Shown here: in pieces, positions 2,723 through 17,156 of the stretch
How the letters are laid out: the number at the start of each line of letters is the position of its first letter
How positions within the stretch are numbered: the stretch's first letter is position 1
Origin: an uncultured virus (IMG/VR IMGVR_UViG_3300045790_000889)
Lineage: Duplodnaviria > Heunggongvirae > Uroviricota > Caudoviricetes
Virus record (IMG/VR): IMGVR_UViG_3300045790_000889
DNA length: 20,000 bases
Strand: one strand, 5' to 3'
Position numbers and translations under genes: made by a program
Notes under the pieces: generated by a model
Databases searched by the model: none
Seen by the model: the letters and a program-made list of their open reading frames with translations, nothing else
Told to the model about the DNA's origin: nothing

Positions 2723-3310
2723 ATGAATAGTTTGGCGCGAGACCTCGCGGAAAATGTTGATTGGAAAAATTTCTTTGAAATGAGACATTCTGTAGGTTCA
2801 CAATTAAACGACAGAACATTACGTTTTTTAAAATCAATTATACAAGATAAAGCAATTGAAAAAATGAGTGGTGGTAAAGTCCAATATGTAGATTTAATTG
2901 GACAAGATCATCAATTTAAAAAATATCGTATTGAAACTAAATGTGGTACAAATGTATTAACAACAGCAAAAGGTAAAGAAAAAAAGAAATCTGTAACTGG
3001 TTCTATCAAGTTGAACAATACACTAGGTTCAAGTCATGGTAGAACATTACCTAACACGTTTGATTATCTGATGATTGTTGATAATGATGCAGTGGCAATA
3101 GTAAAGCGAGAAAATCTATTGCCACACATTACAAGTGGTGGAGATGGACTTAGTGTTAAATTACCTTACTCAGAACTTGAGTGGGTTGTAAAACCAAAAG
3201 AGTTTGATCATGATAACTTTAAAAATATTCAGAGTGTGAATGTTTTAGAACAACTTTATGAAATGATAGAGAAAATAATAACAATGTCTACTGATAAAAA
3301 TAATAGATAA
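2723..3310 (+). CDS. Putative PD-(D/E)XK restriction-endonuclease-like protein
   Basis: GQD-x7-IETK fits the D...E-x-K catalytic motif, with an upstream helix (FLKSIIQDKAIE) and a downstream FDYLMIVD strand. Confidence 0.55.
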   Translation: MNSLARDLAENVDWKNFFEMRHSVGSQLNDRTLRFLKSIIQDKAIEKMSGGKVQYVDLIGQDHQFKKYRIETKCGTNVLTTAKGKEKKKSVTGSIKLNNTLGSSHGRTLPNTFDYLMIVDNDAVAIVKRENLLPHITSGGDGLSVKLPYSELEWVVKPKEFDHDNFKNIQSVNVLEQLYEMIEKIITMSTDKNNR

Positions 3311-3314
3311 TTTG

Positions 3315-3343
3315 TTGACTAAACCTTTATATTATGGTATAAT
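3315..3343 (+). promoter_or_regulatory. Sigma70-type (early) promoter of gp43
   Basis: TTGACT-N17-TATAAT with extended -10 TG (3335-3336); GGAG Shine-Dalgarno at 3354-3357. Confidence 0.85.
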
Positions 3344-3364
3344 AACTCCAAACGGAGAAGAATA

Positions 3365-5866
3365 TTGAAAGCATTTTATACAAACGTAGCAAGATATGGC
3401 AACTCACTCTTATACCGTGGTTATAATGACCACGGTGTTCGTATTGATAAGCGAGTCAAGTTTAAACCAAAACTCTTTGTTCGTAGCAAAGAAAAAAATA
3501 CAGTATGGAAAACCCTTGAAGGATTTTCTGTTGCACCAGTAGAATTTGAATCTATGAGAGCAGCAAAAGAATGGTTAGAGACTTACAAAGATATGGATAA
3601 TGTCAAAATCTATGGCATGACTAATTATATCCAACAGTTTATAACTAGCGCATTTCCAAATGAAATAGAGTTTAATCGTAAAACAGTCAATGTCGCTAAC
3701 TTAGATATTGAAGTTGCATCAGATGATGGATTCCCACATCCAGATGCTGCTGATTATCCTGTTATATCAATTTGCCATAAATCATCAACATCTAATGTTT
3801 ATCACGTTTGGGGTTTGGGTGAATATGATGTTGATAAACGTGAAAATCAAAATTTGATTGTCCAGTACCGTCATTGTAAAAACGAATTAGAATTACTAGC
3901 AAAGTACATGGAATTTTGGACTAAGAATCCACCAGATGTTATAACTGGTTGGTATATTAAAATGTTTGATATGCCTTATCTAATTAATCGTGTTACTAAA
4001 ATCGCTGGTAATGATGTGGCAAAAAAGTTTTCTCCATGGGGTTTGATTAGTGAACGCAACGTAAATGTCGCTGGTCAAAATCATAAACATTATGAAATAA
4101 CTGGTATTTCTCAATTAGATTATATGGACCTATTTAAAAAGTTTGGATATTCGTATGGAACTCAAGCATCATACAAATTAGATCACATTGCCAATACTGT
4201 ACTTGGTGAGAAAAAATTATCGTATGAGGAACATGGAACACTTCATACTCTATATAAAAATGACCATCAATTATTCATTGATTATAATATCAAGGATGTT
4301 TACTTAGTGGATAAGATTGATGAAAAAATGGATTTGATTACTCTTGCACTTACTATGGCATATCGTGGTGGTGTGAACTATGAGGCAACTCTTGGGACAA
4401 CTGCTATATGGGACTCAATCATATATCGTGAACTGAATAAACAACATGTTGCTATACCACCAAATGAAAATACAATCAAATCACCATATCCAGGAGGTTA
4501 CGTTAAAGAACCTAAAGTCGGCCTACATGATTGGGTGGTTTCGTTTGATTTGAATTCACTATATCCCAATTTGATTATTCAATATAATATGTCACCAGAA
4601 ACTTTGGTTGTAGATATTGAAAACACTTATCAATCAGGTGTTGAACATTATATGAATAATGCTCCAAATGTAAAAAACGATCTTTCTGTAGCGGCAAATG
4701 GCTCAACTTATACTAGACAAAGGCAAGGTATTGTACCACAAATTATTGCAGATTATATGTTGGAGCGTAAAGCGACTAAGAAGTTAATGCTTGAAGCAAT
4801 GCAAAAAAATCAAGATAATCCATCTACTGAACTTGAAAAGCAAATCAATCAACTTGAAAATCGGCAAATGGCGATTAAAATTCTATTGAATTCTCTTTAT
4901 GGTGCTTTGGGTAATGCTTACTTTCGGTATTTTGATATGCGTGTCGCAGAAGGTATTACTCTGTCTGGACAGTTAGCGATTCAATGGGCAGAACGCGCTA
5001 TGAATGATGAAATGAATAAAATACTCAAAACAGATAATTTTGATTATGTAATCGCTATTGATACTGACTCACTGTATATCAACTTTGGGCCTTTTGTAGA
5101 TAAATTGAAACCTAAAGACCCTGTTAAAGCATTGGACAAAATTTGCGCTGAACATTTTGAAAAGGTTTTAGAGAAAGCGTATGATAAACTATTTAATCAA
5201 ATGAACGCATATACAAATCGCATGGTTATGGAAAGGGAAGCGATTGCAGATCGTGGTATCTGGACAGCCAAAAAACGATATTTACTGAATGTTCATAATA
5301 ACGAAGGTGTTCAATACGCAGAACCAAAATTAAAGATCATGGGTATTGAGGCTATTAAATCAAGCACACCTCAAGTGGTGCGAGATAAGTTTATGCAGTC
5401 GTTTAAAATCATCATGTCTGGTTCTGAAGAAAAAACAAGAAAGTTTATTGCTGATTTTAAGAAAGAGTTTAAATCTCTACCACCAGAAGATATATCTTTT
5501 CCAAGAGGTGTTAGTGATATTGTGAAATGGAGCGACAGAAAAACTATTTACAAGAAAGGTACACCAATTCATGTGAGAGGTAGTTTACTCTATAATAATC
5601 AGATCAAAGATAAGGCATTAGGAAAAAAGTATGCGGTCATTCAAAATGGTGAAAAAATTAAGTTTTGCTATTTAAAGATGCCCAACCCTCTAAAGGAAAA
5701 TGTTATATCATTTCCAGATTACATTCCAAGTGAGTTTAATCTACATAGATATGTAAATTATGACGTTCAATTTGAAAAGACCTTTGTAGAACCAATTACA
5801 CCAATCTTAGATGCAATTGGGTGGAGTGTGGAAGAAAGATCATCATTAGAAGATTTTCTCTCCTAA
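3365..5866 (+). CDS. gp43: T4-like family B DNA polymerase
   Basis: Exo I DIEV, Exo II GWY..FDMPY, Exo III YNIKDV; polymerase motifs SFDLNSLYP, KILLNSLYGALGN, AIDTDS, KKRY, MGIEAIKSSTP. TTG start. Unsplit, with no intein-sized insertion. Confidence 0.98.
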   Translation: MKAFYTNVARYGNSLLYRGYNDHGVRIDKRVKFKPKLFVRSKEKNTVWKTLEGFSVAPVEFESMRAAKEWLETYKDMDNVKIYGMTNYIQQFITSAFPNEIEFNRKTVNVANLDIEVASDDGFPHPDAADYPVISICHKSSTSNVYHVWGLGEYDVDKRENQNLIVQYRHCKNELELLAKYMEFWTKNPPDVITGWYIKMFDMPYLINRVTKIAGNDVAKKFSPWGLISERNVNVAGQNHKHYEITGISQLDYMDLFKKFGYSYGTQASYKLDHIANTVLGEKKLSYEEHGTLHTLYKNDHQLFIDYNIKDVYLVDKIDEKMDLITLALTMAYRGGVNYEATLGTTAIWDSIIYRELNKQHVAIPPNENTIKSPYPGGYVKEPKVGLHDWVVSFDLNSLYPNLIIQYNMSPETLVVDIENTYQSGVEHYMNNAPNVKNDLSVAANGSTYTRQRQGIVPQIIADYMLERKATKKLMLEAMQKNQDNPSTELEKQINQLENRQMAIKILLNSLYGALGNAYFRYFDMRVAEGITLSGQLAIQWAERAMNDEMNKILKTDNFDYVIAIDTDSLYINFGPFVDKLKPKDPVKALDKICAEHFEKVLEKAYDKLFNQMNAYTNRMVMEREAIADRGIWTAKKRYLLNVHNNEGVQYAEPKLKIMGIEAIKSSTPQVVRDKFMQSFKIIMSGSEEKTRKFIADFKKEFKSLPPEDISFPRGVSDIVKWSDRKTIYKKGTPIHVRGSLLYNNQIKDKALGKKYAVIQNGEKIKFCYLKMPNPLKENVISFPDYIPSEFNLHRYVNYDVQFEKTFVEPITPILDAIGWSVEERSSLEDFLS

Positions 5867-5908
5867 GAATTATATTTAAGTTTATAAACAACAAGGAATA
5901 ATTATATT

Positions 5909-6469
5909 ATGAAACTAAAGCCAAGTGAAATGTATGATTTAGCAAAAAACGATGAAATACAGAATTATATACAAAACAATCTTTATGACCCATGGATAGG
6001 AAGCCCCTTTGAAGGATATAGATATATGGGTAATAAACAAAAGGGTGAACTAGGAGAGAGATTAGTAACTCTAATAATGGAAAAGGCAGGGTACATTGTT
6101 GAATTTGCTCACACATCAACTGCTGGATACGATAGAATTTTAAATGGAATTAAAACGGAAATTAAGTTTTCTGTTGCACATACAGACACTAAAAAAAGAT
6201 CAATCAAAAAAGATTGTTTTACAATGAACCATGTCGCAGTTGGTAAAGATTGGGACCGTCTTATTTTTATTGGAGTAAATGAAAATCCTAATGAATTTAA
6301 GGCTGTGTATATGACAAAAGAAATGTTTGAAAACTGTCTGAAAACAGATAATCATTTTAATCATCAACAAGGTGGTAAAAATTCAAAGAATGATGATTAT
6401 ATGGTTACGGAGAAAAAACTTAGAGAACTAATGCAATCAGAATATGTAAAAGAATTGAGTGCATGGTAA
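5909..6469 (+). CDS. Putative type II restriction-like PD-(D/E)XK endonuclease
   Basis: KGELGE helix, AGYD-x7-TEIK (D...EIK) and WDRLIFIG. Overlaps the start of a methyltransferase gene. Confidence 0.7.
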   Translation: MKLKPSEMYDLAKNDEIQNYIQNNLYDPWIGSPFEGYRYMGNKQKGELGERLVTLIMEKAGYIVEFAHTSTAGYDRILNGIKTEIKFSVAHTDTKKRSIKKDCFTMNHVAVGKDWDRLIFIGVNENPNEFKAVYMTKEMFENCLKTDNHFNHQQGGKNSKNDDYMVTEKKLRELMQSEYVKELSAW

Positions 6470-7191
6470 AAACTATACTTGGTGATTGCTTAGAGGTATT
6501 GCCTACAATTGAAGATAATTCAGTAGATATGCTTCTTGTTGATCTTCCTTATGGTACTACTGCATGTAAATGGGATTCTGTTATTCCATTAGATAAACTA
6601 TGGGAACAGTATGATAGGGTTTGTAAGAAAAATGCAGCAATGGTTTTTACCGCAATGCAACCATTCACAACAATTCTTGCTGCTTCTAATATAGAAAATT
6701 TAAGATATGAATGGATTTGGGAAAAACCTCAAGGCACAAACCCCATGAATGTGAAGATAATGCCGTTAAAATCCCATGAAAATATCTTAGTATTTTATAG
6801 GGAGAAACCAACTTATAATCCTCAAATGTGGTATAGTACACCTTATTCTGGATTTAGTAGCGATACTGCAAAAATTGGTGAAGTGTATGGCAATGCTGAA
6901 TCAAAACATAGGGATAACCCAGAAGGATCAAGATACCCAAAAACAGTGATAAAACATAAACAAGAAAAAGGTTATCATCCTACTCAAAAACCAGTAGGTT
7001 TGATGGAATATTTGATAAAGACTTACACTAATGAATGGGATGTTGTTCTTGATAATACAATGGGTTCTGGAACTACAGGAGTTGCTTGCGTCCATACAAA
7101 TAGAGAATTTATAGGAATAGAAAAAGAAGAAAAGTATTTTAAAATAGCAGAAAAAAGATTAGGTACAAATTTAAATGAATTTTTCTATTGA
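6463..7191 (+). CDS. DNA amino-methyltransferase (N6-A/N4-C, beta class)
   Basis: GDCLE, motif IV DLPY, HENILVF, HPTQKPVGLMEYLI, motif I variant VLDNTMGSGTTG, FIGIE. Confidence 0.93.
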   Translation: MVKTILGDCLEVLPTIEDNSVDMLLVDLPYGTTACKWDSVIPLDKLWEQYDRVCKKNAAMVFTAMQPFTTILAASNIENLRYEWIWEKPQGTNPMNVKIMPLKSHENILVFYREKPTYNPQMWYSTPYSGFSSDTAKIGEVYGNAESKHRDNPEGSRYPKTVIKHKQEKGYHPTQKPVGLMEYLIKTYTNEWDVVLDNTMGSGTTGVACVHTNREFIGIEKEEKYFKIAEKRLGTNLNEFFY

Positions 7192-7216
7192 CTCTCTGAT
7201 ACAAATCATGTATTCA
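7188..7216 (+). promoter_or_regulatory. Possible sigma70-type promoter
   Basis: TTGACT (7188-7193), N17, TATTCA (weak -10), upstream of two small ORFs. Confidence 0.4.
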
Positions 7217-7257
7217 TATAGTTGAAGTTAGTAAATAAAACAAAACGGAGCATACTG

Positions 7258-7365: not shown

Positions 7366-7384
7366 ACCTTAATAGGAGAATATC

Positions 7385-7588
7385 ATGCACAGTAAAAAAG
7401 AATATAAATTTAATTCAGAGGCAGATGCTCAAAAGTTTGCTGATGCCGAAAATCAATCGTATGATCCTAGTTGTGATGTTTACATTACTGGACCTTTCTT
7501 TGTAGATGAGTCAAACACATTTAAAGATATGCCATGGGTTACTGATACTAAAACATACTGGCATGTTGGTGTAGAAGTTTACAGATAA
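7385..7588 (+). CDS. Hypothetical protein (67 aa)
   Basis: Strong AGGAG Shine-Dalgarno before ATG; no recognisable motif. Confidence 0.7.
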   Translation: MHSKKEYKFNSEADAQKFADAENQSYDPSCDVYITGPFFVDESNTFKDMPWVTDTKTYWHVGVEVYR

Positions 7589-7594
7589 AATCTG

Positions 7595-7629
7595 TTGACA
7601 AAATGTCCCATATATGTTAATATGGGACA
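7595..7629 (+). promoter_or_regulatory. Sigma70-type promoter overlapped by an inverted repeat
   Basis: TTGACA (7595-7600), N17, TAATAT (7618-7623) with TG extension; TGTCCCATAT (7604-7613) / ATATGGGACA (7620-7629). Confidence 0.7.
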
Positions 7630-7650
7630 AATTTAAATAAAGGATATATT

Positions 7651-7992
7651 ATGGAAACTAAAAAAATCAAAACGCACGAATTTCCTGTGATGGCATTAAT
7701 CAATAAAATTGGTGATTGGCATGAAAATCGTAATTTGATTGATGGATCAAGTGACAAAGACCAAGTTTTGAAATTGATGCAAGAATTGGGAGAGTTGTCC
7801 GACAGCGTTTGTAAGGGTAATGATATTCGTGATGATTTAGGTGATATGATGGTTGTAATGATCAATATCATGAAACGTAATAATATTACTATGAATGAAT
7901 GTTTAACAGTTGCTTACAATGATATTAAAGATCGTAAAGGTAAAATGATTGATGGTATCTTTGTAAAGGAATCCGATTTAAAGGATATGTAG
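7651..7992 (+). CDS. mazG: MazG-like nucleotide pyrophosphohydrolase
   Basis: KLMQELGEL...IRDDLGDMMVV (ExxE...D-x-x-D all-alpha NTP-PPase motif) and AYNDIKDRKG..IDG.FVKE tail. Confidence 0.85.
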   Translation: METKKIKTHEFPVMALINKIGDWHENRNLIDGSSDKDQVLKLMQELGELSDSVCKGNDIRDDLGDMMVVMINIMKRNNITMNECLTVAYNDIKDRKGKMIDGIFVKESDLKDM

Positions 7993-8927
7993 TGTACTCG
8001 CTTACGATATTCAAATCTATATATGACAACAAAACCCACCGTAGAATGAATTTTTCGCGGTGGGAAGCCTTTAATGATTTCCTATATAAATTATCAGAAC
8101 AAAAAATAGAAAGTAAAAAAGATGCTCAACTTATATCACCTGCTACTTACTTATCTAATACGACTAGGGCAAACGCGAATGTGGTTAATTGGGCAAATTG
8201 GACTGCTGTTGATGTTGATGATCATGTCTTTAAAGGAAACTTAAAGGATGAGTTATTTAATCGCTTTGGCGATTATACCTATATTTGTTATAGTACCGCT
8301 AGTAGTTCTATTGACCATCCGAAGTTTAGACTTGTATTCCCGCTCAGTAAAGAGGTTGAAAATTCTAAAATTCGTCACTTCTGGTTCTCGCTTAATAAAG
8401 AACTCAGTGAAATCGGAGATGGGCAAACAAAAGACTTATCAAGGATGTATTATATCCCTGCTAATTATTCTAATGCTAACAACTTTATATTCAATAATGT
8501 TGGCAGTGATATTGATCCTGACAAATTAATGAGTAAACATTCATATGAAGTGAAAAGTGGTAGTAGTTTCAAAGACCGTATGCCAAAACACATAGCAGAT
8601 AGAGCAATTGAATATGAAAAGAATAAATTAGACAATACTGATGTTAGGTGGACAGGATATAGAGATTGTCCATTTGTAAATAAACGTCAGATACATGATT
8701 GGTTTGATATTTCTGGTGTTGACAATTCTGGTAGATATGCTATGATATATAAAATTATGGTAAGTACTGCAATGAATGCAATAAGTAGAAAGTATCCAAT
8801 AACATCATTTGAGTTGGAGCAACTGATAAGAGAACTAGACAGTGAAACTTCTAGAAAATATGAAAAAAGACCTTTGGCTGTTGAAGCCGATAGAGCAATA
8901 GAATACGCATATAGAAACGTGTTGTAA
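7992..8927 (+). CDS. AEP-superfamily primase/primase-polymerase-like protein
   Basis: AVDVDD (DxD), YSTASS...KFRLVFPL, D.QTKDLSRMYYIP and a helical C-terminal domain. GTG start overlapping the mazG stop. Confidence 0.7.
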   Translation: MYSLTIFKSIYDNKTHRRMNFSRWEAFNDFLYKLSEQKIESKKDAQLISPATYLSNTTRANANVVNWANWTAVDVDDHVFKGNLKDELFNRFGDYTYICYSTASSSIDHPKFRLVFPLSKEVENSKIRHFWFSLNKELSEIGDGQTKDLSRMYYIPANYSNANNFIFNNVGSDIDPDKLMSKHSYEVKSGSSFKDRMPKHIADRAIEYEKNKLDNTDVRWTGYRDCPFVNKRQIHDWFDISGVDNSGRYAMIYKIMVSTAMNAISRKYPITSFELEQLIRELDSETSRKYEKRPLAVEADRAIEYAYRNVL

Positions 8928-8936
8928 GGAGTTTAT

Positions 8937-9200
8937 GTGATAATGGGAAATAGTTTATTTGATGACGATGATGATCAGTCAACATCTGAATGGACAGATA
9001 TGCCTGAGTTTGTCCAACCAAAGCAAGAAGAATTTGCTAAAGTTATTGTTAGATTTCGTAACGAAGAAGATTTGAATGAGTTTCAAAAATTGATTGATCA
9101 AATCGTAACAACAAGAACAAAGAGTATTTGGCATCCCAAATTGGTTAGAGGTGCTACACTGCAAGAAGTTTGGGTTGATGAGTTTTTTGATGAAGAATAA
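8937..9200 (+). CDS. Small acidic protein associated with a phage GREB1/TAGT-like glycosyltransferase
   Basis: EW..MPEF.Q...IVRF.NEED..EF..LI.Q..T..TKSIWHP. AAGGAG Shine-Dalgarno (start GTG 8937 or ATG 8943). Overlaps the glycosyltransferase start. Confidence 0.7.
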   Translation: MIMGNSLFDDDDDQSTSEWTDMPEFVQPKQEEFAKVIVRFRNEEDLNEFQKLIDQIVTTRTKSIWHPKLVRGATLQEVWVDEFFDEE

Positions 9201-10065
9201 TTACCCAATATATGTGGTATCCAAAAATAGGTGGGAGAGTCGTATGACTATGAAGCACCTTGATTGGATGGGGTGTGATTATTATATTGTAATTGAACAA
9301 TCACAATGGAATGAGTATGCTGCAACTTGTGGTAAAGAAAAACTGTTAGTTCTTCCACAGTCATATATTGATGATTATGATACATGGGATAACTTGGGTG
9401 ATAGTAAATCCAAAGGCCCAGGTGCTGCGCGAAACTTTGCTTGGGATCACTCAATAAGCAATGGTGACAAAAGACACTGGGTAATGGATGATAACTTTGA
9501 GGGGTTTTATCGCCTCAACAGAAACCGAATTTTATTCTCTAAAACTCCTAGAGTTTTCTTAGCGATGGAAGATTTTGCTGATAGGTATGTTAATGCCCCA
9601 ATAGTAGGTCCAAACTATGCTTGCTTTGTAAAATCAACTGATGCTGTACCACCTTACATATTAAATACCAGAATTTATAGTTGTCTGTTGATTGAAAACG
9701 CAGTCAAATATCGTTGGAGGGGGCGGTATAATGAGGATACCGACTTATCATTAAGGGTATTGAAGGATGGTTTATGTACTATTCAATTCAATGCATTTCT
9801 TGCTGGTAAACTTACTACTCAAAAAATTACTGGTGGTAATACTGATGAGTTCTATTCTACAGAAGGTACTTATCCAAAGTCTAAGATGTTAGAGGATATG
9901 CATCCAGATGTTGCAAAGGTTGTTTGGAAATTTAATCGCTGGCATCATCACGTAGATTACAAAAGATTTAGAAAAAATACCTTAATTCGTCATTCAGACT
10001 ATACTCCAATAAAAGGTATAAATGAGTATGGAATGAGGTTGGTTGATAGAAAAGGTTTAAGATAA
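9190..10065 (+). CDS. GREB1/TAGT-like GT-A glycosyltransferase (putative DNA base glycosyltransferase)
   Basis: YPIYVVSKNR, GPGAARNFAW, HWVMDDN (DD metal motif), NTRIYSCLLI, WRGRYNEDTDLSLRVLKDG, GGNT, RWHHHVDY. Start reassigned to ATG 9190. Confidence 0.8.
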   Translation: MKNNYPIYVVSKNRWESRMTMKHLDWMGCDYYIVIEQSQWNEYAATCGKEKLLVLPQSYIDDYDTWDNLGDSKSKGPGAARNFAWDHSISNGDKRHWVMDDNFEGFYRLNRNRILFSKTPRVFLAMEDFADRYVNAPIVGPNYACFVKSTDAVPPYILNTRIYSCLLIENAVKYRWRGRYNEDTDLSLRVLKDGLCTIQFNAFLAGKLTTQKITGGNTDEFYSTEGTYPKSKMLEDMHPDVAKVVWKFNRWHHHVDYKRFRKNTLIRHSDYTPIKGINEYGMRLVDRKGLR

Positions 10066-10071
10066 TTTAAA

Positions 10072-10094
10072 ATTGTAAACTCAGAGTTTACAAT
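10072..10094. repeat. Perfect 11 bp palindrome upstream of the metabolic block
   Basis: ATTGTAAACTC-A-GAGTTTACAAT. Confidence 0.75.
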
Positions 10095-10133
10095 AGATCA
10101 ATATAATAAAGATTTATAATATAGGAGAAATGC

Positions 10134-10937
10134 ATGACATTTATAGCAGCAATGGATCATTCTGGTGGTAGCACTGGCGGCGTATTAGAGCGATATGGTC
10201 AAGAATATACTGAAGATAATAAAATGGATTTAGTTCACCGTATGCGACTGCGTATGGTATTGAACGAAAACTTTACAAGTGATAAGATTAGTCATGCAAT
10301 CCTTTACAAAGATTCTGTTGAAAAGGATATGGTGGCTGTTCTTGCAAATAAAGGTATTCATGCTATTCTGAAGGTTGATAGTGGATGTGAAGCAAATGGT
10401 TTCTTGAAGGTATTTGATGTTGATTCAATGATACGTTTTGCTTTAGGGGCTGGTTGTGTAGGAACCAAAATGAGAAGTATTGTTAAAGATATGTATGATA
10501 TTCCAAAACTTCTTGATCAACAATTTGAGTTAGCGTGGAGAATTTCAAACGCTGGTCTTACGCCAATAGTAGAACCAGAAGTTCCTATTGATGCGTTTAA
10601 TAAATCAGTCATTGAAAAACATCTAAATGAAGAATTGATGAATCGTTGTAGAGATTTTCCTGGCCAACTTATTCTTAAACTTACCATACCTGATATTTCA
10701 GAAACGTACAATAATTTGTATGAATACAATTCAGTTGAAAAAATTGTTGGTCTAAGTGGGGGGTATTCAACTGAGGAAGCATGTACCAAATTGTCTCGCT
10801 CACCACATATGAGTGCAAGTTTCAGTAGAGGTTTAAGTGAAGGTCTATTCCATTCACAAACAGATGAAGAGTTTAATGAAAGAATTAAATCAAACATAGA
10901 TATGATATATAAAGCAAGCAAATGGAGTAAAGTATGA
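10134..10937 (+). CDS. fda: Fructose-1,6-bisphosphate aldolase, class I (bacterial Fda type)
   Basis: FIAAMDHSGGST (cf. FIAALDQSGGST), LKVDSG, GTKMRS, PIVEPEV, LKLTIP (Schiff-base Lys), GLSGGYS, ASFSRGL. Confidence 0.92.
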   Translation: MTFIAAMDHSGGSTGGVLERYGQEYTEDNKMDLVHRMRLRMVLNENFTSDKISHAILYKDSVEKDMVAVLANKGIHAILKVDSGCEANGFLKVFDVDSMIRFALGAGCVGTKMRSIVKDMYDIPKLLDQQFELAWRISNAGLTPIVEPEVPIDAFNKSVIEKHLNEELMNRCRDFPGQLILKLTIPDISETYNNLYEYNSVEKIVGLSGGYSTEEACTKLSRSPHMSASFSRGLSEGLFHSQTDEEFNERIKSNIDMIYKASKWSKV

Positions 10938-11284
10938 CAATCGCAGGAAAAGTATGGGGTCAAACAGAATTGATTGAGGCAAATGGTGCGTTAGAATTTC
11001 ATCGTATTGAAATGGAAGGCGGCGGCGTCTGTTCAAAACATCTACATGAGTATAAATGGAATGGCTTTTATATTGAGTCAGGAATTATGCTTGTTCGCGT
11101 CTGGCAGAATGATTATGATTTGATTGATGAGACTATTTTAAACGCTGGTGAATATACTAAAGTAAAACCCGGTGTGTATCATCAATTTGAGTGTATTGAG
11201 CCGGGAGTGGCATTTGAATTGTACTGGGCAGAATTTAACCATAGTGATATTGTGAGAGAAACTGTAGGTCATTCTGCTTTATAA
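10934..11284 (+). CDS. Cupin-fold protein (sugar isomerase/epimerase-like)
   Basis: KVWG, CSKHLHEYKWNGFYIESG (cupin motif 1, HxH) and VKPGVYHQF (cupin motif 2). Confidence 0.8.
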   Translation: MTIAGKVWGQTELIEANGALEFHRIEMEGGGVCSKHLHEYKWNGFYIESGIMLVRVWQNDYDLIDETILNAGEYTKVKPGVYHQFECIEPGVAFELYWAEFNHSDIVRETVGHSAL

Positions 11285-11295
11285 AGGACGTTAAA

Positions 11296-12171
11296 ATGAA
11301 CGCATATGCTGATGCTGGTGTTAATATTGAAAAGGGAAACGAGATAGCAAAATATCTTGGCTTCAAAGATTTTGGTGCCTCTTTAATGATTGGCGGTGAG
11401 GAAGTTGTTATATCTACTGATGGGGTAGGTACAAAGATTTTAGTTGCCGAAGCACAAAATAAATTTGATACCATTGGTATTGATCTTGTCGCAATGTGTG
11501 TAAATGATATTCTATGTAAGTTTGCTCAACCAATAGGATTTCTTGATTATTACGCGACAGGGGAAATATGCCTTGATAAATCAAAAGAAATTTTGAAAGG
11601 AATATTAAAAGGCTGCGAACTTGCTGGTTGTACTCTTATGGGCGGTGAGACCGCTGAGATGCCAGGAGTTTATGAGGGGTCTAAATTTGACCTTGCTGGT
11701 TTTGTTGTTGGTACTGTAATTGATCGTCATGTGCCTAGAATTGTGCAAGAAGGCGATATTCTTGTAGGCATTCATTCAAGTGGCCCACACTCAAATGGAT
11801 TTAGTATGCTAAGAGAAGTATTACCAATTGATGAAATACCACTTACACCCACAAGAATTTATACAGATGAAATACTGAATAACCATCATTTGATTAATGC
11901 AGTATCACATATTACTGGTGGTGGTCTTATAGAAAATATTCCTAGAATGTTGGGTGGTAGAGAACACTCTTTAGAAGTTTCAATTGTAGGTGATTTGGTG
12001 TATGGTAATGATTGGTGGAATGATTTATATTTAAAGTGTCAAAATAAAATGGATATGAGAGAATTTTTAACAATATTTAATGGTGGTTACGGTATGGTGT
12101 TAGCCGTTTCTCCACACAATGTGGATAAGTTAAATATAGAAAATGTTAAAGTAATCGGAAAAGTGTTATGA
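11296..12171 (+). CDS. purM: Phosphoribosylaminoimidazole (AIR) synthetase
   Basis: YADAGVNI, STDGVGTK, IGIDLVAMCVND, FLDYYA, GGETAEMPG, DLAGF, SSGPHSNGFS, LTPTRIY, HITGGG, FNGGYG. Confidence 0.96.
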   Translation: MNAYADAGVNIEKGNEIAKYLGFKDFGASLMIGGEEVVISTDGVGTKILVAEAQNKFDTIGIDLVAMCVNDILCKFAQPIGFLDYYATGEICLDKSKEILKGILKGCELAGCTLMGGETAEMPGVYEGSKFDLAGFVVGTVIDRHVPRIVQEGDILVGIHSSGPHSNGFSMLREVLPIDEIPLTPTRIYTDEILNNHHLINAVSHITGGGLIENIPRMLGGREHSLEVSIVGDLVYGNDWWNDLYLKCQNKMDMREFLTIFNGGYGMVLAVSPHNVDKLNIENVKVIGKVL

Positions 12172-12353
12172 TTGAAAAGCAGATTGCAGATTTACAAAGA
12201 CGTATAGAAAAGTTAGAAGCAAGACCTGTATTATATCAAAGAAAGGGCGTTCTAGGTAATCCGAATGGTTTCGTTTATACTCAAGGACAAAACGCATTAC
12301 ATGAGCCTGTTGAATTAGAACATATTAAAAATAAAGGACTAGAAAATGACTAA
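12168..12353 (+). CDS. Hypothetical protein (61 aa, N-terminal coiled coil)
   Basis: Overlaps both neighbours (ATGA with purM); IADLQRRIEKLE heptads. Confidence 0.65.
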   Translation: MIEKQIADLQRRIEKLEARPVLYQRKGVLGNPNGFVYTQGQNALHEPVELEHIKNKGLEND

Positions 12354-13581
12354 TATCAACATCACAACAAATCCAACAGGACGTAGCCCAGAAAATAAAT
12401 ACTTTTTTGGAGAAGCAACTTCAGAATTATGCACAGAGAGATCAAAATATTGCAAGATTGGTAATATGGATGATTATCTTTCATTTGCACATCAGATGCT
12501 TCCTAGCGTGATAACAGAATATATTTACAAAAAACCTTTACAATTTGAATCTGCAAATATTAGATTTCAAGTATACACCAATGATGAACGTCATGAACAA
12601 TTTGTAAGAAATATGTTTGACATATTACCTAATGGATTTGGGCATCATGTTCCCGATTGGACAATTTGGCACAACACTGAATTAGATGTGCCGCATCCTA
12701 AAATTTATGTAAACCTTGATACTAAAACTATGTTTATTGCTGGAACCACCTTTCTTGGTGAGATTAAGAAAGGTGTGTTTGGTATCATTGGATTTGAACT
12801 TCCTAAACGAGATTATCTTCCTATGCATTGTAGTGCCTTTAGGTTTCGGAAAATCGGAACATATGATGCAACTACTAATTTAATGTTTGGTCTGAGTGGA
12901 ACAGGTAAGACTACATTGAGCAGTGATCCAGACTATGCGCTAATTAGTGATGATGAGGTTTATTGGGATAATAACGGCATCAAAATGATTGAAACTGGAT
13001 GTTATGCTAAGAGTGAGGGTTTATCTCCAGAAACACATAAGACTATTTTTGATGCTATTGAAAAAGCGAAGGCAGAAGATTGCTTAGTTGTAGAAAATCC
13101 AGGTGTACCAAACGCAAGATTGAGTTACCCTATCACTTGTGTTGAAAACGCATATCATAAACCTCAGAAATTTAATCATCCAGATAATATATTTTTCTTA
13201 ACTATGGACGCAAAGGGAGTATTTCCACCATACAGCAAGATTAGTGGCGAGACAGTTCGTAGATTTTTTGAAACTGGATATACAAGTCAGATGCCAGGAA
13301 CTGAGAAGGGCGCAACTGAGATTAAGCCACTCTTTAGTCCATGTTATGGATCACCCTTTATGCCAAGGCCAGTGAAAGAATACAGTGACTTATTAATGCG
13401 AAAGATTCATGAGAATAATTGTAATGTATATTTGATTAACACTGGAATGGATAAGGATGGAAAGCGTTTTTCTCTTGACTTTACGCGAAAATGTGTTAAA
13501 ATGTGTATAGAAAATAACATGGAAGATAAGAGTAAAGAAGTGTTAAAAACTCTTGAGGATTTAATAGGCAATAAAATATGA
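12346..13581 (+). CDS. pckA: Phosphoenolpyruvate carboxykinase (ATP), compact form
   Basis: TGRSP, GEIKKG, MHCSA, P-loop FGLSGTGKTTLS, LISDDE, ETGCYAK, NARLSYP, FFLTMDAKGVFPP, FSPCYGSPF, YLINTG. Confidence 0.92.
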   Translation: MTNINITTNPTGRSPENKYFFGEATSELCTERSKYCKIGNMDDYLSFAHQMLPSVITEYIYKKPLQFESANIRFQVYTNDERHEQFVRNMFDILPNGFGHHVPDWTIWHNTELDVPHPKIYVNLDTKTMFIAGTTFLGEIKKGVFGIIGFELPKRDYLPMHCSAFRFRKIGTYDATTNLMFGLSGTGKTTLSSDPDYALISDDEVYWDNNGIKMIETGCYAKSEGLSPETHKTIFDAIEKAKAEDCLVVENPGVPNARLSYPITCVENAYHKPQKFNHPDNIFFLTMDAKGVFPPYSKISGETVRRFFETGYTSQMPGTEKGATEIKPLFSPCYGSPFMPRPVKEYSDLLMRKIHENNCNVYLINTGMDKDGKRFSLDFTRKCVKMCIENNMEDKSKEVLKTLEDLIGNKI

Positions 13582-14282
13582 TTCACTATATATTTGATGT
13601 TGATGGAACACTTACGCCAAGTAGGGCCAAGATGGATGAAAAATTTAGTTCATTCTTCTTTGACTTCTGCACATTAAATAATGTATATCTTGTCACTGGT
13701 AGTGATACGCAAAAGACCCAAGAACAAGTCGGAAATGTTATTTGGGGAATGACTAAGCGTAATTATCAATGTTCTGGTAATGACGTATGGGAACGTGGTG
13801 AGAATATCAAAAAGAACAGTCTAAAACTACCTGACACTATATGGGGATACTTGAACACCGAAATTAATAATAGTGAATTTCCAGTAAGAACTGGCGGTCA
13901 TATTGAGGAAAGGGCGGGACTTGTAAATTTATCTATTGTGGGTAGAAACGCTGGAAAACGTGCTAGAACTCAATATGTGGCTTGGGATAATCATACAAAC
14001 GAAAGAAGAACCATTGCGAAACGACTATCAAAAAAATTTACGGAATTTGATTTTAATGTCGCGGGTGAAACTGGAATAGATATTACAATAAAAGGTAATG
14101 ATAAATCTCAGATATTGACAGACTTCACTAAATCTGATATAATACATTTTTATGGAGATAAATGTGATTTCGGTGGTAATGATCATACTATAGCAATGGG
14201 AGTGTATGATCTTGGCGAACCAAACTCAGTATATCAAGTGCAAGATTGGAGAGAAACTTGGGAACTACTAAAGTCGGTATAA
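13578..14282 (+). CDS. HAD-superfamily IIB phosphomannomutase (eukaryotic PMM-like)
   Basis: FDVDGTLT, LVTGSD, IEERAGLVNLSIVGR, GETGIDI, DKSQIL, FYGDK...GGND. Confidence 0.88.
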   Translation: MIHYIFDVDGTLTPSRAKMDEKFSSFFFDFCTLNNVYLVTGSDTQKTQEQVGNVIWGMTKRNYQCSGNDVWERGENIKKNSLKLPDTIWGYLNTEINNSEFPVRTGGHIEERAGLVNLSIVGRNAGKRARTQYVAWDNHTNERRTIAKRLSKKFTEFDFNVAGETGIDITIKGNDKSQILTDFTKSDIIHFYGDKCDFGGNDHTIAMGVYDLGEPNSVYQVQDWRETWELLKSV

Positions 14283-14674
14283 CTGCATCAACTTTTGATT
14301 TTCTACATGCTGGTCATATCGCTATGTTGCGTGAAGCAAAATCACAATGCGATTATTTAATATGTGCATTGCAAGTTGATCCATCTTTGGATAGGCCAGA
14401 GAAGAATACACCAGTACAGACATTGGTTGAGCGACACACTCAACTTGCAGCCGTAAAATATGTTGATGAAATTATTCCATATCAAACAGAGCAAGACTTA
14501 GAGGATATATTATCCATGTTTCCTATAAACATAAGAATTATAGGTGAGGAATATAAAAACGGTAAGTTTACTGGTCGCGCTATTTGTTCAAAGCGTGGCA
14601 TAGAGATATATTATAACAAAAGAGACCACAGATTTTCATCTAGTGATTTAAGAAAGCGAGTGAAAAATATATGA
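14258..14674 (+). CDS. Cytidylyltransferase (TagD/glycerol-3-phosphate cytidylyltransferase-like, HIGH family)
   Basis: ASTFDFLHAGH (HxGH), ER...L.AVKYVDEI, RDHRFSSSDLR. The likely start is TTG 14258 after GGAG 14248-14251 (track start 14246). Confidence 0.88.
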   Translation: MGTTKVGITASTFDFLHAGHIAMLREAKSQCDYLICALQVDPSLDRPEKNTPVQTLVERHTQLAAVKYVDEIIPYQTEQDLEDILSMFPINIRIIGEEYKNGKFTGRAICSKRGIEIYYNKRDHRFSSSDLRKRVKNI

Positions 14675-15855
14675 TTATTAACGGTGACTGTATTGAAGAA
14701 ATGCAGAAATTAATTGACCAAGGCGTTCAAGTTGATGCGGTAGTTACAGACCCACCATATGAAATTGGATTTATGGGTAGAGAATGGGATTCCACAGGAA
14801 TTGCTTACCGAAAAGAAACTTGGAGACTTGCTTGGGAATTATTGAAGCCAGGTGGACACTTACTTGCTTTTAGTGCATCTCGTACCTACCATAGAATGAC
14901 AGTCGCTATTGAGGATGCTGGATTTGAAATTCGTGATCAAATGATGTGGTTGTATGGTTCTGGGTTTCCAAAGAGTCATAATATTAGTAAGTCTCTTGAT
15001 AAGATGGCTGGTGCAGAGCGTGAGGTTGTGGGGGTAGCAGGGAAATCTGGCTCACAAAGGTCGGCAATGGCTGGCGACTTCAAGGGTGGGGAATATAATA
15101 CAACCTCCCCCGCCACTGATGAAGCCCAACAATGGGATGGTTGGGGTACTGCACTCAAACCAGCGCACGAACCGATTGCGGTAGGTCGTAAACCATTGTC
15201 TGAAGGTACTGTTGCTAAGAATGTATTAAAACATGGAACTGGTGGTATTAATATTGATGCTAGTCGTATTCCTACTAATCCTGCTGTTGATGATGCCCGA
15301 CTTGGTGGTAAAGGCTCTTGGAAAACTGATAGGATGGGAAGAAATGTTTATATTGGTGGATATGTTGGTAAGGAAAATGGTTCAAGTGAACTAGGTAGAT
15401 TCCCAGCAAATATAATGCACGATGGTTCTGAGGAAGTGGTTAAGTTGTTTCCAGAAAGCAATAGTGCAAGAGTGGGAAATCCAAATAATCCTAAAAGAGG
15501 GACTAATCATACTGCCACTAGTTATGGACAAGGGGATGGTAAAATAACACATGATTTTAGAGACAAAGGCTCCGCATCAAGATATTTCTATTGCCCAAAA
15601 GTATCAAAAAAAGAACGTGGTGAGAACAACAAACATCCGACAGTTAAACCACAAGAGTTGATGAAATATTTAATTCGCATGGTAACACCTAAAGGTGGTA
15701 CTGTACTTGATCCATTCATGGGTTCTGGTTCTACTGGTATGGCAGCAAAGGATTTAGAATTTAATTTTATTGGTATTGAAATGGATGAAGAATACTTTAA
15801 GATATGTCAAGAACGAATTGAAGAAATCAATCCACTAGGAGAATTTTTAGAATGA
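14671..15855 (+). CDS. DNA amino-methyltransferase (beta class), paralog 1
   Basis: GDCIE, VTDPPY, LKPGGHLL, YGSGFPKS, GWGTALKPAHEPI, GRFPAN, HPTVKP, VLDPFMGSGSTG. Confidence 0.94.
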   Translation: MIINGDCIEEMQKLIDQGVQVDAVVTDPPYEIGFMGREWDSTGIAYRKETWRLAWELLKPGGHLLAFSASRTYHRMTVAIEDAGFEIRDQMMWLYGSGFPKSHNISKSLDKMAGAEREVVGVAGKSGSQRSAMAGDFKGGEYNTTSPATDEAQQWDGWGTALKPAHEPIAVGRKPLSEGTVAKNVLKHGTGGINIDASRIPTNPAVDDARLGGKGSWKTDRMGRNVYIGGYVGKENGSSELGRFPANIMHDGSEEVVKLFPESNSARVGNPNNPKRGTNHTATSYGQGDGKITHDFRDKGSASRYFYCPKVSKKERGENNKHPTVKPQELMKYLIRMVTPKGGTVLDPFMGSGSTGMAAKDLEFNFIGIEMDEEYFKICQERIEEINPLGEFLE

Positions 15856-17156
15856 TTATTAATGGCGATTGTATTGAAGAAATGCAAAAATTAATTGACC
15901 AAGGCGTTCAAGTTGATGCTGTAGTTACAGACCCGCCATATCACCTACAATCTATCGTGGACAGATTTGGAAAAACATCTCTGAGCGATGATACTAAGAC
16001 TTCAGAAAGAGCGAGAGGTCGTAGTGACGGTTATGCAAGAATGAGTGCTGGTGGTTTCATGGGTCAAGAGTGGGACGGTGGCGATATTGCATTTCGTGCC
16101 GAGACTTGGAGACTTGCTTGGGAATTATTGAAACCGGGTGGACACTTACTTGCATTTTCTGCTTCACGCAATTATCATAGAATGGCGGTTGCGATTGAGG
16201 ATGCTGGATTTGAAATTCGTGATCAAATGATGTGGTTATATGGCAGTGGATTCCCGAAAAGCCTGAATATTAGCAAGGCGATTGACAAGGCTGCAGGGGC
16301 TAAGCGTGAGGTTGTGGGTAGTAAGGTCACTGGAAGGGCTGGCACTAGGGCAGACAAGAGGAATGCAGACGATGGATTTGAGTCTGGAAACATGGTTATA
16401 CCAGTCACAGCCCCCGCAACCCCCGAAGCCAAGCAATGGGACGGATGGGGTACTGCATTAAAACCAGCGCACGAACCGATTGCAGTCGGGCGAAAACCAA
16501 TATCCGAAAGTACTGTTGCTAAGAATGTATTAAAACATGGAACTGGTGGTATCAATATTGATGAAAGTCGTATTCCAGCCTCGCATGAAGATATTGAAGC
16601 ACAAAGAAAAACAAGCGGCGTTGTGGGTGGCAAAAAACAAAGTATTGTGTATGGAAAAAATTTCGCAGAAAAAAAACAACTCGCTGGAAATGATTTAGGT
16701 AGATTCCCAGCAAATATAATGCACGATGGTTCTGAGGAAGTGGCTAAGTTGTTTCCTGACACTAGACAGGCTGGGAATAAAAAACCAAGTTCTATTACTT
16801 CTGGAAAAATGTTTCTTGGTATTGGAGACATTGGAAAGAGGAATCCTGAAATAGTAGGAGACAATGGAGGTTCAGCCTCACGTTTCTTCTATTGCCCAAA
16901 AGTATCAAAAAAAGAGCGTGGGGAAAATAACAAACATCCAACAGTCAAACCACAAGAGTTGATGAAATACTTAGTGAGACTTGTCACGCCTAAAGGTGGT
17001 ACTGTACTTGATCCATTTATGGGTTCTGGCTCTACTGGAATGGCAGCAAAAGATTTGGGTTTTGACTTTATTGGTATTGAGAAATCAGAAGAATATTTCA
17101 AAATCTGTCAAGAACGAATTGATGAAACAAACCCACTAAGCGAATTTTTTGACTAG
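15852..17156 (+). CDS. DNA amino-methyltransferase (beta class), paralog 2
   Basis: Same motifs as paralog 1, plus an insertion after DPPY (HLQSIVDRFGK...MSAG). ATGA coupling. Confidence 0.94.
   Translation: MIINGDCIEEMQKLIDQGVQVDAVVTDPPYHLQSIVDRFGKTSLSDDTKTSERARGRSDGYARMSAGGFMGQEWDGGDIAFRAETWRLAWELLKPGGHLLAFSASRNYHRMAVAIEDAGFEIRDQMMWLYGSGFPKSLNISKAIDKAAGAKREVVGSKVTGRAGTRADKRNADDGFESGNMVIPVTAPATPEAKQWDGWGTALKPAHEPIAVGRKPISESTVAKNVLKHGTGGINIDESRIPASHEDIEAQRKTSGVVGGKKQSIVYGKNFAEKKQLAGNDLGRFPANIMHDGSEEVAKLFPDTRQAGNKKPSSITSGKMFLGIGDIGKRNPEIVGDNGGSASRFFYCPKVSKKERGENNKHPTVKPQELMKYLVRLVTPKGGTVLDPFMGSGSTGMAAKDLGFDFIGIEKSEEYFKICQERIDETNPLSEFFD

Follow-up and report, generated by a model that had tools for sequence, protein, structure and literature searches.

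The 20,000-nucleotide stretch of the uncultured virus record IMGVR_UViG_3300045790_000889 analysed here (the window) carries, from position 8937 to 14674, a run of genes for a TAGT-family glycosyltransferase and its small partner, a class I fructose-bisphosphate aldolase (FBA), a cupin, PurM, a compact phosphoenolpyruvate (PEP) carboxykinase (PCK), a phosphomannomutase-like protein (PMM) and a cytidylyltransferase. We propose, with a probability of roughly 0.72, that this run is a mix-and-match recombining island of at least three independent units, and not one pathway. All of these genes lie on the plus strand where the initial annotation had placed them, and profile and structure matches bore out their families; the single coupled module that it drew from them, leading from gluconeogenesis through nucleoside diphosphate sugars (NDP-sugars) to DNA glycosylation, was contradicted by gains and losses of the genes independently of one another, even among near-identical phages. 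Two features were surprising: the glycosyltransferase is an orphan in a swappable slot and is probably tethered to the clamp, and the compact PCK of phages seems to have taken the place of a host gene.

The window belongs to a 39,483-base virus record (G000; completeness about 19%), from which it differs at 20 of 20,000 positions. The gene order of this record is T4-like (major capsid, gp55, gp47, gp46, gp45, gp44, gp62, regA, gp43, uvsX and gp41; all names except uvsX are what we presume from the sequences), and the run sits between gp43 and uvsX. The phage is marine, uncultured and T4-like, and its nearest cultured gp43 is that of phage C48C1 (57% identity). Every gene of the run was intact. 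Since the run genes were under purifying selection in comparison with three relatives (L002, L003 and L103; dN/dS 0-0.22) and near-identical DNA was present in seawater, marine and ice metagenome runs, an assembly artefact was excluded.

Gene exchange in the gp43-uvsX interval

The exchanged slots and the genes that frame them are as follows (aa, amino acids).

3365..5866: gp43
7992..8927, plus strand: primase-polymerase-like gene, the fixed left anchor of slot 1 (PHROG 9765, 7e-52; 100% identical in L250)
8719..8746, plus strand: sigma70-like site in the primase gene, upstream of slot 1 (11/12, extended -10; pattern match only)
8937..9200, plus strand: 87-aa TAGT partner, slot 1, probable sliding-clamp adaptor
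9193..10065, plus strand: TAGT-family GT-A glycosyltransferase, slot 1, 290 aa (PF20691, 1.4e-40; phrog_842, 4e-51)
10934..11284, plus strand: virus-type cupin, possible sugar-phosphate isomerase, recombined allele (PF07883, Cupin_2)
11296..12171, plus strand: PurM, slot 2 (TIGR00878, above cut-off)
From 17208: uvsX

The partner and TAGT genes were replaced in relatives with 95-99% identity of the flanking DNA. In particular, the DNA of L250 was 98.9% identical to the window over 3308-7236 and 98.2% identical over 7369-8939, with gp43 and primase-polymerase proteins 100% identical to those of the window, and it diverged at 8939, where slot 1 held a CmoA-like gene and a C5-methyltransferase. 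The same allele was observed in L003, L004 and L312, all of which kept FBA, cupin, PCK, PMM and cytidylyltransferase, and L003 rejoined the window DNA at 10095 (metagenome contigs L312 and L325, of 138 kb and 142 kb, were read over 6 kb on each side of the match). Slot 1 was occupied by Dam and an ABC-ATPase/GNAT fusion in L103 (91% gp43 identity) and by a set of unassigned open reading frames (ORFs) in L116, and it was empty in L005 and L006; the TAGT allele was carried by L001, L002, L309 and L310. A 14-codon stub before the CmoA-like gene (L003 6856-6900; L250 15426-15470) matched the start of the L103 ABC-GNAT gene, which suggests successive replacements in slot 1.

The CmoA-like gene matched TIGR00740 at 1.9e-20, below the cut-off. 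A CmoA and C5-methyltransferase homologue pair (CmoA-CmoX) forms the cytosine carboxymethylation system of Synechococcus phage S-B43 in the available part of PMC12783734. The alternative allele resembles that system in its two genes; unlike it, as far as that part describes it, the allele has no adjoining CmoY and carries the motif FPC instead of SPPC.

Slot 2, between cupin and PCK, was similarly variable, containing PurM, MetK or nothing among the relatives. MetK stood in place of PurM in L005-L007, and PurM was deleted in L003 (11325-12171, with 9 shared letters at the joint), a deletion that recurred in an independent contig from another run. The cupin gene showed dS values of 0.82-0.86 to relatives, compared with 0.06-0.36 for the neighbouring genes, and its product was 96-97% identical to cupins of a lineage whose gp43 was only 79% identical; by these comparisons the cupin allele is recombined. 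In L003, which has no TAGT, cupin, PMM and cytidylyltransferase were still constrained (dN/dS 0-0.18).

Co-occurrence across viral loci pointed in the same direction. Among 79 TAGT loci (the best 80 of 282 relatives, one lost to a position filter), the partner was present in 71, and FBA, PCK, PMM or PurM in 2, both of the window's lineage; where 4 kb was available on both sides, the partner was found in 28 of 29 loci and FBA, PCK, PMM and PurM in 1 of 29 each, again the window's lineage. In the PCK loci (the best 80 of 123 viral loci, gene families being confirmed on examples), the partners were FBA (29), GAPDH (15), Prs (12), KdsA (12), a gp42-like gene (11), MetK (10) and TAGT (5), and 18 of the 29 loci with FBA also had GAPDH, Prs, PyrF, PurS, dihydroorotate dehydrogenase (DHOD) or PurM. 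Because PCK and FBA co-occur with GAPDH, Prs, PyrF, PurS and DHOD, a predicted role of the two as a carbon-to-nucleotide supply set is supported. Two halves of the initial interpretation thus remain plausible separately, a carbon supply by PCK and FBA and a TAGT that probably acts on DNA, and the link between these two halves was not supported, a warning that closely packed auxiliary genes of phages need not form one pathway. Another large-phage lineage (L114, L151, L158 and L162) also carried PCK with FBA, GAPDH, Prs, PyrF, PurS or DHOD.

The TAGT pair and the search for its acceptor

The TAGT protein, which likely starts at the ATG at 9193, scored 139.9 bits against PF20691, above the curated cut-off of 27.5, and was 55-62% identical to proteins of phages Aeh1 and 65; no solved structure of it was found. 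A DD motif, the acidic metal-binding motif of GT-A enzymes, occurs at residues 99-100 behind a hydrophobic strand. The partner, encoded separately in the window, is fused to TAGT in phages 65 and Aeh1 of Aeromonas, as well as in L036 and L041. Its C-terminus is a clamp-type motif resembling the clamp-binding tail of T4 gp43 and gp55, as we presume that tail to be defined. This motif ended 6 of the 50 ORFs of G000, namely gp55, gp43, three methyltransferases and the partner, against a background of 3 in 957 windows, and the same scan found it at the end of none of six metabolic genes. Among 55 partner homologues, rows that are related to one another, 37 had an N-terminal LF (shuffles: mean 6.0, maximum 13), and 19 had a QxxLF-like motif (mean 0.7, maximum 4); the T4-type motif occurred in five at the N-terminus and in one at the C-terminus, the five homologues with it all coming from T4-like contigs. 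The predicted partner model was mostly unstructured (pTM 0.43), and the predicted complex with gp45 scored 0.00, which, the partner fold being uncertain, is evidence neither way. The T4 alpha-glucosyltransferase binds gp45, according to the portion of PMC13216743 at hand. Taken together, these data make the partner a probable adaptor, which would carry TAGT to the replication fork. The recurrent neighbours of TAGT were replication and recombination genes. Two traits of the partner, its fusion to TAGT in cultured phages and its clamp-type motifs, favour DNA as the target; and since the pair alternates with DNA-modifying cassettes, it probably acts on DNA.

We then examined the records for an acceptor-forming enzyme. 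Records G352, G067, G000, G350 and G349, linked by overlaps of 92%, 100%, 97% and 99.9% identity, together cover some 176 kb, or about 85%, of a genome estimated at roughly 205 kb, and G350 was 99.9% identical to the TAGT-bearing L001. The initial annotation had seen no hydroxymethylase or TET gene inside the window, correctly; a hydroxymethyl-base pathway, which its reading would require of the genome, was likewise not found in these approximately 176 kb of close-relative records. The hydroxymethylase family PF00303 was missing from G000 and 19 related records, in which controls matched, and ThyX was present instead of a gp42-type gene. A C5-methyltransferase occurred in 1 of 9 records, as the alternative slot allele without TAGT. 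An alpha-gt-like query from L009 found no match in the close loci or the fetched parts of G349-G352, beta-gt not being included in this search, and gp55 and gp47 abut in G000. Searches of 65 of 72 new ORFs of at least 100 aa from the fetched parts against PHROGs, and of 26 ORFs against Pfam, revealed no known base-modifying enzyme, many of these ORFs being without a family. Two small 2-oxoglutarate (2OG) oxygenases of other families were present among radical-SAM genes in G352, where a cluster of radical-SAM, 2OG-oxygenase and cupin genes lies amid tail genes (L431 12079 to L432 2388). G349 carries a phage-borne SbmA/BacA-like transporter and a MotA/TolQ-like gene (L428 11089-14735).

A fused partner-TAGT pair without a gp42-type gene was likewise found in the complete phages 65, Aeh1 and GD1 and in record 1.076.O. 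An ordinary thymidylate synthase was present in 65, Aeh1 and GD1, Aeh1 adding a weak fragment, and none in 1.076.O; PTm1 had one extra weak match. The only match of a gp42 query in the five cultured-phage records with close TAGTs was a weak one to the GD1 thymidylate synthase. Phages 65 and Aeh1 are not among the gene-42 phages of Table 4 in PMC2993671 (as excerpted), and the Aeh1 transferase is classed under 'unknown base' in the excerpt of PMC8056088. A solitary TAGT without the first glucosyltransferase is given for 288 of 753 genomes in the accessible text of PMC13216743. In a sister clade (L009 15277-20611, L095 and L101), we observed a gp42-like hydroxymethylase, a dCMP deaminase, an alpha-gt-like gene and a HAD-kinase fusion, together with a second cytidylyltransferase and a C5-methyltransferase-like gene. 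In L100 (16706-19575), L163, L271 and L283, gp42 and the deaminase are followed by a recurring trio of ORFs without annotation, of which the last bears a clamp-type tail; the trio is a candidate set for hypermodification of hydroxymethylcytosine (hmC).

With the beta-glucosyl-HMC-alpha-glucosyltransferase of T2/T6 and the solitary TAGTs (PMC13216743, in part), the window protein shares the PF20691 family, the GT-A DD motif and a T4-like phage. Unlike the T2/T6 system, the window phage has no gp42 or alpha-gt in the records searched, so that the acceptor known from T2/T6 would not be made; furthermore, its TAGT would need a small partner and lies in a swappable slot. The RB69-type arabinosylation cluster and the T4 gene 42/beta-gt region occupy the same DNA polymerase-UvsX interval, with isomerase-like, phosphatase/mutase-like and nucleotidyltransferase genes beside a glycosyltransferase; compared with them, as described in the available part of PMC8056088, the run has no hydroxymethylase, its sugar genes and transferase are not co-inherited, and central-carbon enzymes are interleaved. 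No description of the partner or of the slot exchange was found in the literature searched, which covered few subscription papers.

These results bear on what the run could do as a whole. If hexose phosphates from PCK and FBA passed through cupin, PMM and cytidylyltransferase to an activated sugar or polyol that TAGT placed on hydroxymethylated DNA, the tight packing of the genes would be explained, as would their place in the interval of the RB69-type arabinosylation genes; and in sister clade L009, L095 and L101, gp42 and alpha-gt do stand next to the genes for PCK, PMM, cupin and cytidylyltransferase. However, near-identical relatives without TAGT keep all five enzymes, the TAGT pair elsewhere almost never accompanies them, PF00303 is missing from G000 and the 19 related records, a C5-methyltransferase was seen only in the alternative allele (1 of 9 records), and the fused pair of phages 65, Aeh1, GD1 and 1.076.O manages without a gp42-type gene; we thus regard such a module as very improbable. 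Several observations also weigh against a mosaic island with an independent, DNA-directed TAGT pair. Throughout the window's clade, as far as members with 78% gp43 identity, the order FBA-cupin-PCK-PMM-cytidylyltransferase is unchanged, and thus the five enzymes may act together even without TAGT; L006, L007 and L116 have TAGT genes a few kb away, between a gp40-like gene and gp41; and related T4-like phages place NDP-sugar genes for DNA in the same interval (C48C1; RB69-type arabinosylation, PMC8056088, in part). In addition, TAGT itself carries no C-terminal clamp motif in the motif scan, the tiling leaves about 15% of the genome and mixes phages that are 92-100% identical, none of 14 close records matched TET (PF12851), a search in which the controls gave no match either, and the locus counts, which include many near copies, are not independent.

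Instead of DNA, TAGT might modify a protein, of the virion or of the host, or a glycan of the envelope, possibly with the product of cupin, PMM and cytidylyltransferase as donor. No acceptor-forming enzyme was found in the records searched, the pair adjoins KdsA/KdsB and UDP-glucose dehydrogenase genes in sister clades (L031, L034 and L045), the fused gene of 1.076.O sits between portal and head genes, and restriction-sensitive DNA is noted for some T4 relatives without gene 42 (PMC2993671, in excerpt). The alternation of the slot with DNA-modifying genes, the clamp-type motifs on the partner and the replication-gene neighbours nevertheless make this target doubtful. It is similarly unlikely that PCK supplies PEP to a Kdo-type (KdsA) envelope sugar pathway, with cupin, the HAD protein and cytidylyltransferase as the remnant of a cassette. 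Although KdsA occurs in 12 of 80 PCK loci, PCK lies directly behind kdsA in L145, L159, L160, L161 and L163, and cupin is near KdsA in many loci, the KdsA family PF00793 was found in 0 of 9 records of the window's clade, in which controls matched; moreover, KdsA was absent from 68 of the 80 PCK loci and is a less common partner than GAPDH and FBA, and cupin, PMM and cytidylyltransferase are still under selection. Like phage CMP-Kdo cassettes of sister clades, in which they accompany KdsA/KdsB, the window has cupin, PCK, the PMM-like HAD protein and cytidylyltransferase; unlike in those cassettes, no KdsA was found in the 9 records of its clade.

In the island reading that we prefer, the cassettes of slot 1 would be interchangeable and serve against restriction; the one present here consists of an orphan TAGT and its small partner, a probable tether to the sliding clamp, and TAGT would transfer a sugar from an NDP-sugar of the host to freshly replicated phage DNA. 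FBA, PCK and PurM (or MetK) would be auxiliary metabolic genes (AMGs), PCK converting oxaloacetate (OAA) to PEP and FBA leading to hexose bisphosphate, so that host carbon would be pushed towards sugar phosphates and nucleotides. Cupin, PMM and cytidylyltransferase would be older residents of the interval for sugar phosphates, independent of TAGT, a set that stands with Kdo genes in sister clades. A more specific version is possible but tentative: a self-contained, clamp-tethered cassette that uses host NDP-sugar to sugar a canonical or methylated base or the backbone without a hydroxymethyl handle, as one of several alleles between which the phage population would switch, the others being of the carboxymethylation and acetylation types. 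If true, this would be a new DNA chemistry. The acceptor is directly testable, because near-identical phages differ only in this cassette and the minimal unit has two genes.

Compact PEP carboxykinase in phages and bacterial chromosomes

12346..13581, plus strand: compact ATP-dependent PEP carboxykinase (PCK), 411 aa (PF01293, PEPCK_ATP, 1e-91)

The predicted structure (pLDDT 84) has the PCK fold, with a TM score of 0.82 to the E. coli enzyme, and the protein has lost the N-terminal arm, internal loops and the C-terminal subdomain, which makes it about 130 residues shorter than PckA. Its homologues (the best 120 of 7,998 listed matches) were of 361-454 aa, with a median of 396 aa. The catalytic and nucleotide-binding motifs (R65, K212/K213, H232, kinase-1a, D268/D269, R333 and R449, in what we take to be the E. 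coli numbering, partly echoed by PDB titles) were kept in 118-120 of the 120, and Phe stood at the Tyr207 position in all 120. With 264 bits against 590, the protein falls below the NCBIfam equivalog cut-off; an OAA + ATP to PEP activity is predicted, indirectly, from its being the sole PCK match in five of five incomplete host genomes, at a dN/dS of 0.043. Compared with ATP-dependent PckA of E. coli and Thermus thermophilus, compact PCK shares the fold, the kinase-1a and metal motifs and the catalytic Arg, Lys and His positions; it differs in being 31-41% identical to the long form and in standing also in place of the host gene, and it would define the minimal core of a central enzyme. FBA and PCK had matches of 33-41% in cultured-phage records, several of which were bacterial or unannotated, and PMC12448302 (in part) counts viral pckA and aldolase among the AMGs. 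An 18-nt in-frame insertion (window 12841-12858) lies in a hairpin where other homologues also insert; it is polymorphic, being present in the contig of one run and absent from the contig of another and from L001. The C-terminal helix resembles a clamp motif but was rejected as one, since it has no aromatic residue and host copies share it.

In species genomes, a scan for compact PCK gave nine loci. Six are low-GC chromosomes of alphaproteobacteria, of which one is titled Paracoccaceae; L164 and L171 are phage-like contigs binned into bacterial genome assemblies. In five of five streamlined marine alphaproteobacterial genomes tested, none of which was 90% complete, compact PCK was the only PF01293 match. 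Among 61 relatives, 46 gave a match, 6 of the short and 40 of the long type, and the short form occurred in 1 of 301 family genomes. The short PCK sits at the native chromosomal pckA locus of small low-GC genomes. In G017, a 523-aa PckA has the same gene context, with neighbours that are presumably HprK-, RapZ- and acyl-CoA-dehydrogenase-like; between G017 and G011 the neighbouring genes were 44-60% identical and the PCKs 31%.

In a PCK tree of 46 rows (31 chosen viral representatives, 5 host short forms and 10 of 24 long forms), the host short PCKs formed one clade within the viral rows; their identity to the nearest of these, which had phage gene contexts, was about 80%, and the host copies showed a dN/dS of 0.043. 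The approximately unbiased (AU) test rejected monophyly of the cellular rows (p=0.0085). The sole PCK at the native locus, nested among phage copies, suggests a phage-to-host replacement, and we consider it quite likely that, in a streamlined lineage of marine alphaproteobacteria, a phage-evolved compact PCK took over from the chromosomal pckA. The reverse history, in which the compact form arose by streamlining in marine bacteria and phages took it up, would fit its presence at the chromosomal pckA locus of small low-GC genomes, and the root of the tree is fragile and could mislead, given the long outgroup branch (about 3.9 changes per site) and a simple model. This history is improbable, however, since the host copies form a single clade of little depth that is nested, several supported nodes deep, in the viral diversity, the AU test speaks against cellular monophyly, the identity to the long PckA at the same locus of G017 is only 31% beside neighbours at 44-60%, and the short form was found only in 6 of the 61 relatives and in 1 of the 301 family genomes. 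If the nesting holds, the host copy was replaced, at the native locus, by a metabolic gene of a lytic phage, whereas transfer usually runs the other way. The literature searched, again with few subscription papers, contained no description of the short PCK family or of its place in host chromosomes.

Remaining genes of the run and its surroundings

10134..10937, plus strand: class I fructose-bisphosphate aldolase, bacterial-type, 267 aa (PDB 2iqt, 1.8e-42)
12168..12353, plus strand: 61-aa conserved ORF (no Pfam or PHROG family; 65-98% identical in relatives)
13578..14282, plus strand: HAD-IIB phosphomannomutase-like protein (PF03332, 1.2e-23)
14115..14143, plus strand: sigma70-like site in the PMM gene, upstream of cytidylyltransferase and methyltransferases (12/12, extended -10; pattern match only)
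14246..14674, plus strand: TagD/RfaE-II-like cytidylyltransferase-family protein (PF01467, CTP_transf_like, 1.2e-12)
14671..17156, plus strand: two tandem N6/N4 DNA methyltransferases with C-terminal clamp-type motifs (PF01555; motif scan)

The tight packing described initially held for seven of nine junctions, including that to the next methyltransferase, which overlap by 4-8 nt, with a maximum of 37 nt at PMM/cytidylyltransferase; the other two are gaps of 68 nt and 11 nt, and the 61-aa ORF had been overlooked. Of the proposed methyltransferase bracket, the downstream side adjoins the run, and the upstream side is loose, the gene at 6463-7191 being set apart by a small ORF, MazG and the primase-polymerase. 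The T4 late promoter motif had 0 matches. Sigma70-like sites overall were not above shuffles (46 vs 42.6), and conserved best sites alone were used: the site at 8719..8746 was kept in 4 of 6 relatives and that at 14115..14143 in 5 of 5, including lineages with 78-79% gp43 identity, the latter hinting, as a pattern match only, that cytidylyltransferase is expressed together with the methyltransferases. RNA runs gave a word match of only 7-16%, as contigs, which allows no statement on expression.

The Schiff-base lysine and phosphate-binding motifs of FBA align with 2iqt and were kept in 111-120 of 120 homologues, at a score below the NCBIfam equivalog cut-off (229 vs 392). A query with FBA found no match in five of five host-type genomes, without a positive control, and hence gave no host link; class I aldolase occurs in lytic viromes according to the available part of PMC12485937. 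The nearest Atlas clusters of the cupin were viral, it had no match among cultured phages, and it stands beside KdsA/KdsB in sister clades. PMM matched phosphomannomutase structures at 8e-22, with the catalytic DxDGT nucleophile and cap motifs aligned. The cytidylyltransferase scored 67 bits for TagD (cut-off 165) and 69.5 for RfaE-II (cut-off 181.5), so that a substrate is not assignable, and its homologues in Vibrio phages were 71% identical.

A short DHOD-like gene at 346-1035 is another nucleotide-supply gene of the window, and L003 has PurS downstream. Nuclease-like ORFs without a Pfam family lie on either side of gp43 (2723-3310 and 5909-6469), the former being missing from L250 and L002. 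The methyltransferase paralogues at 14671-17156 share blocks and are a single copy in L001 and L003, and contigs of one run contained joints between the two.

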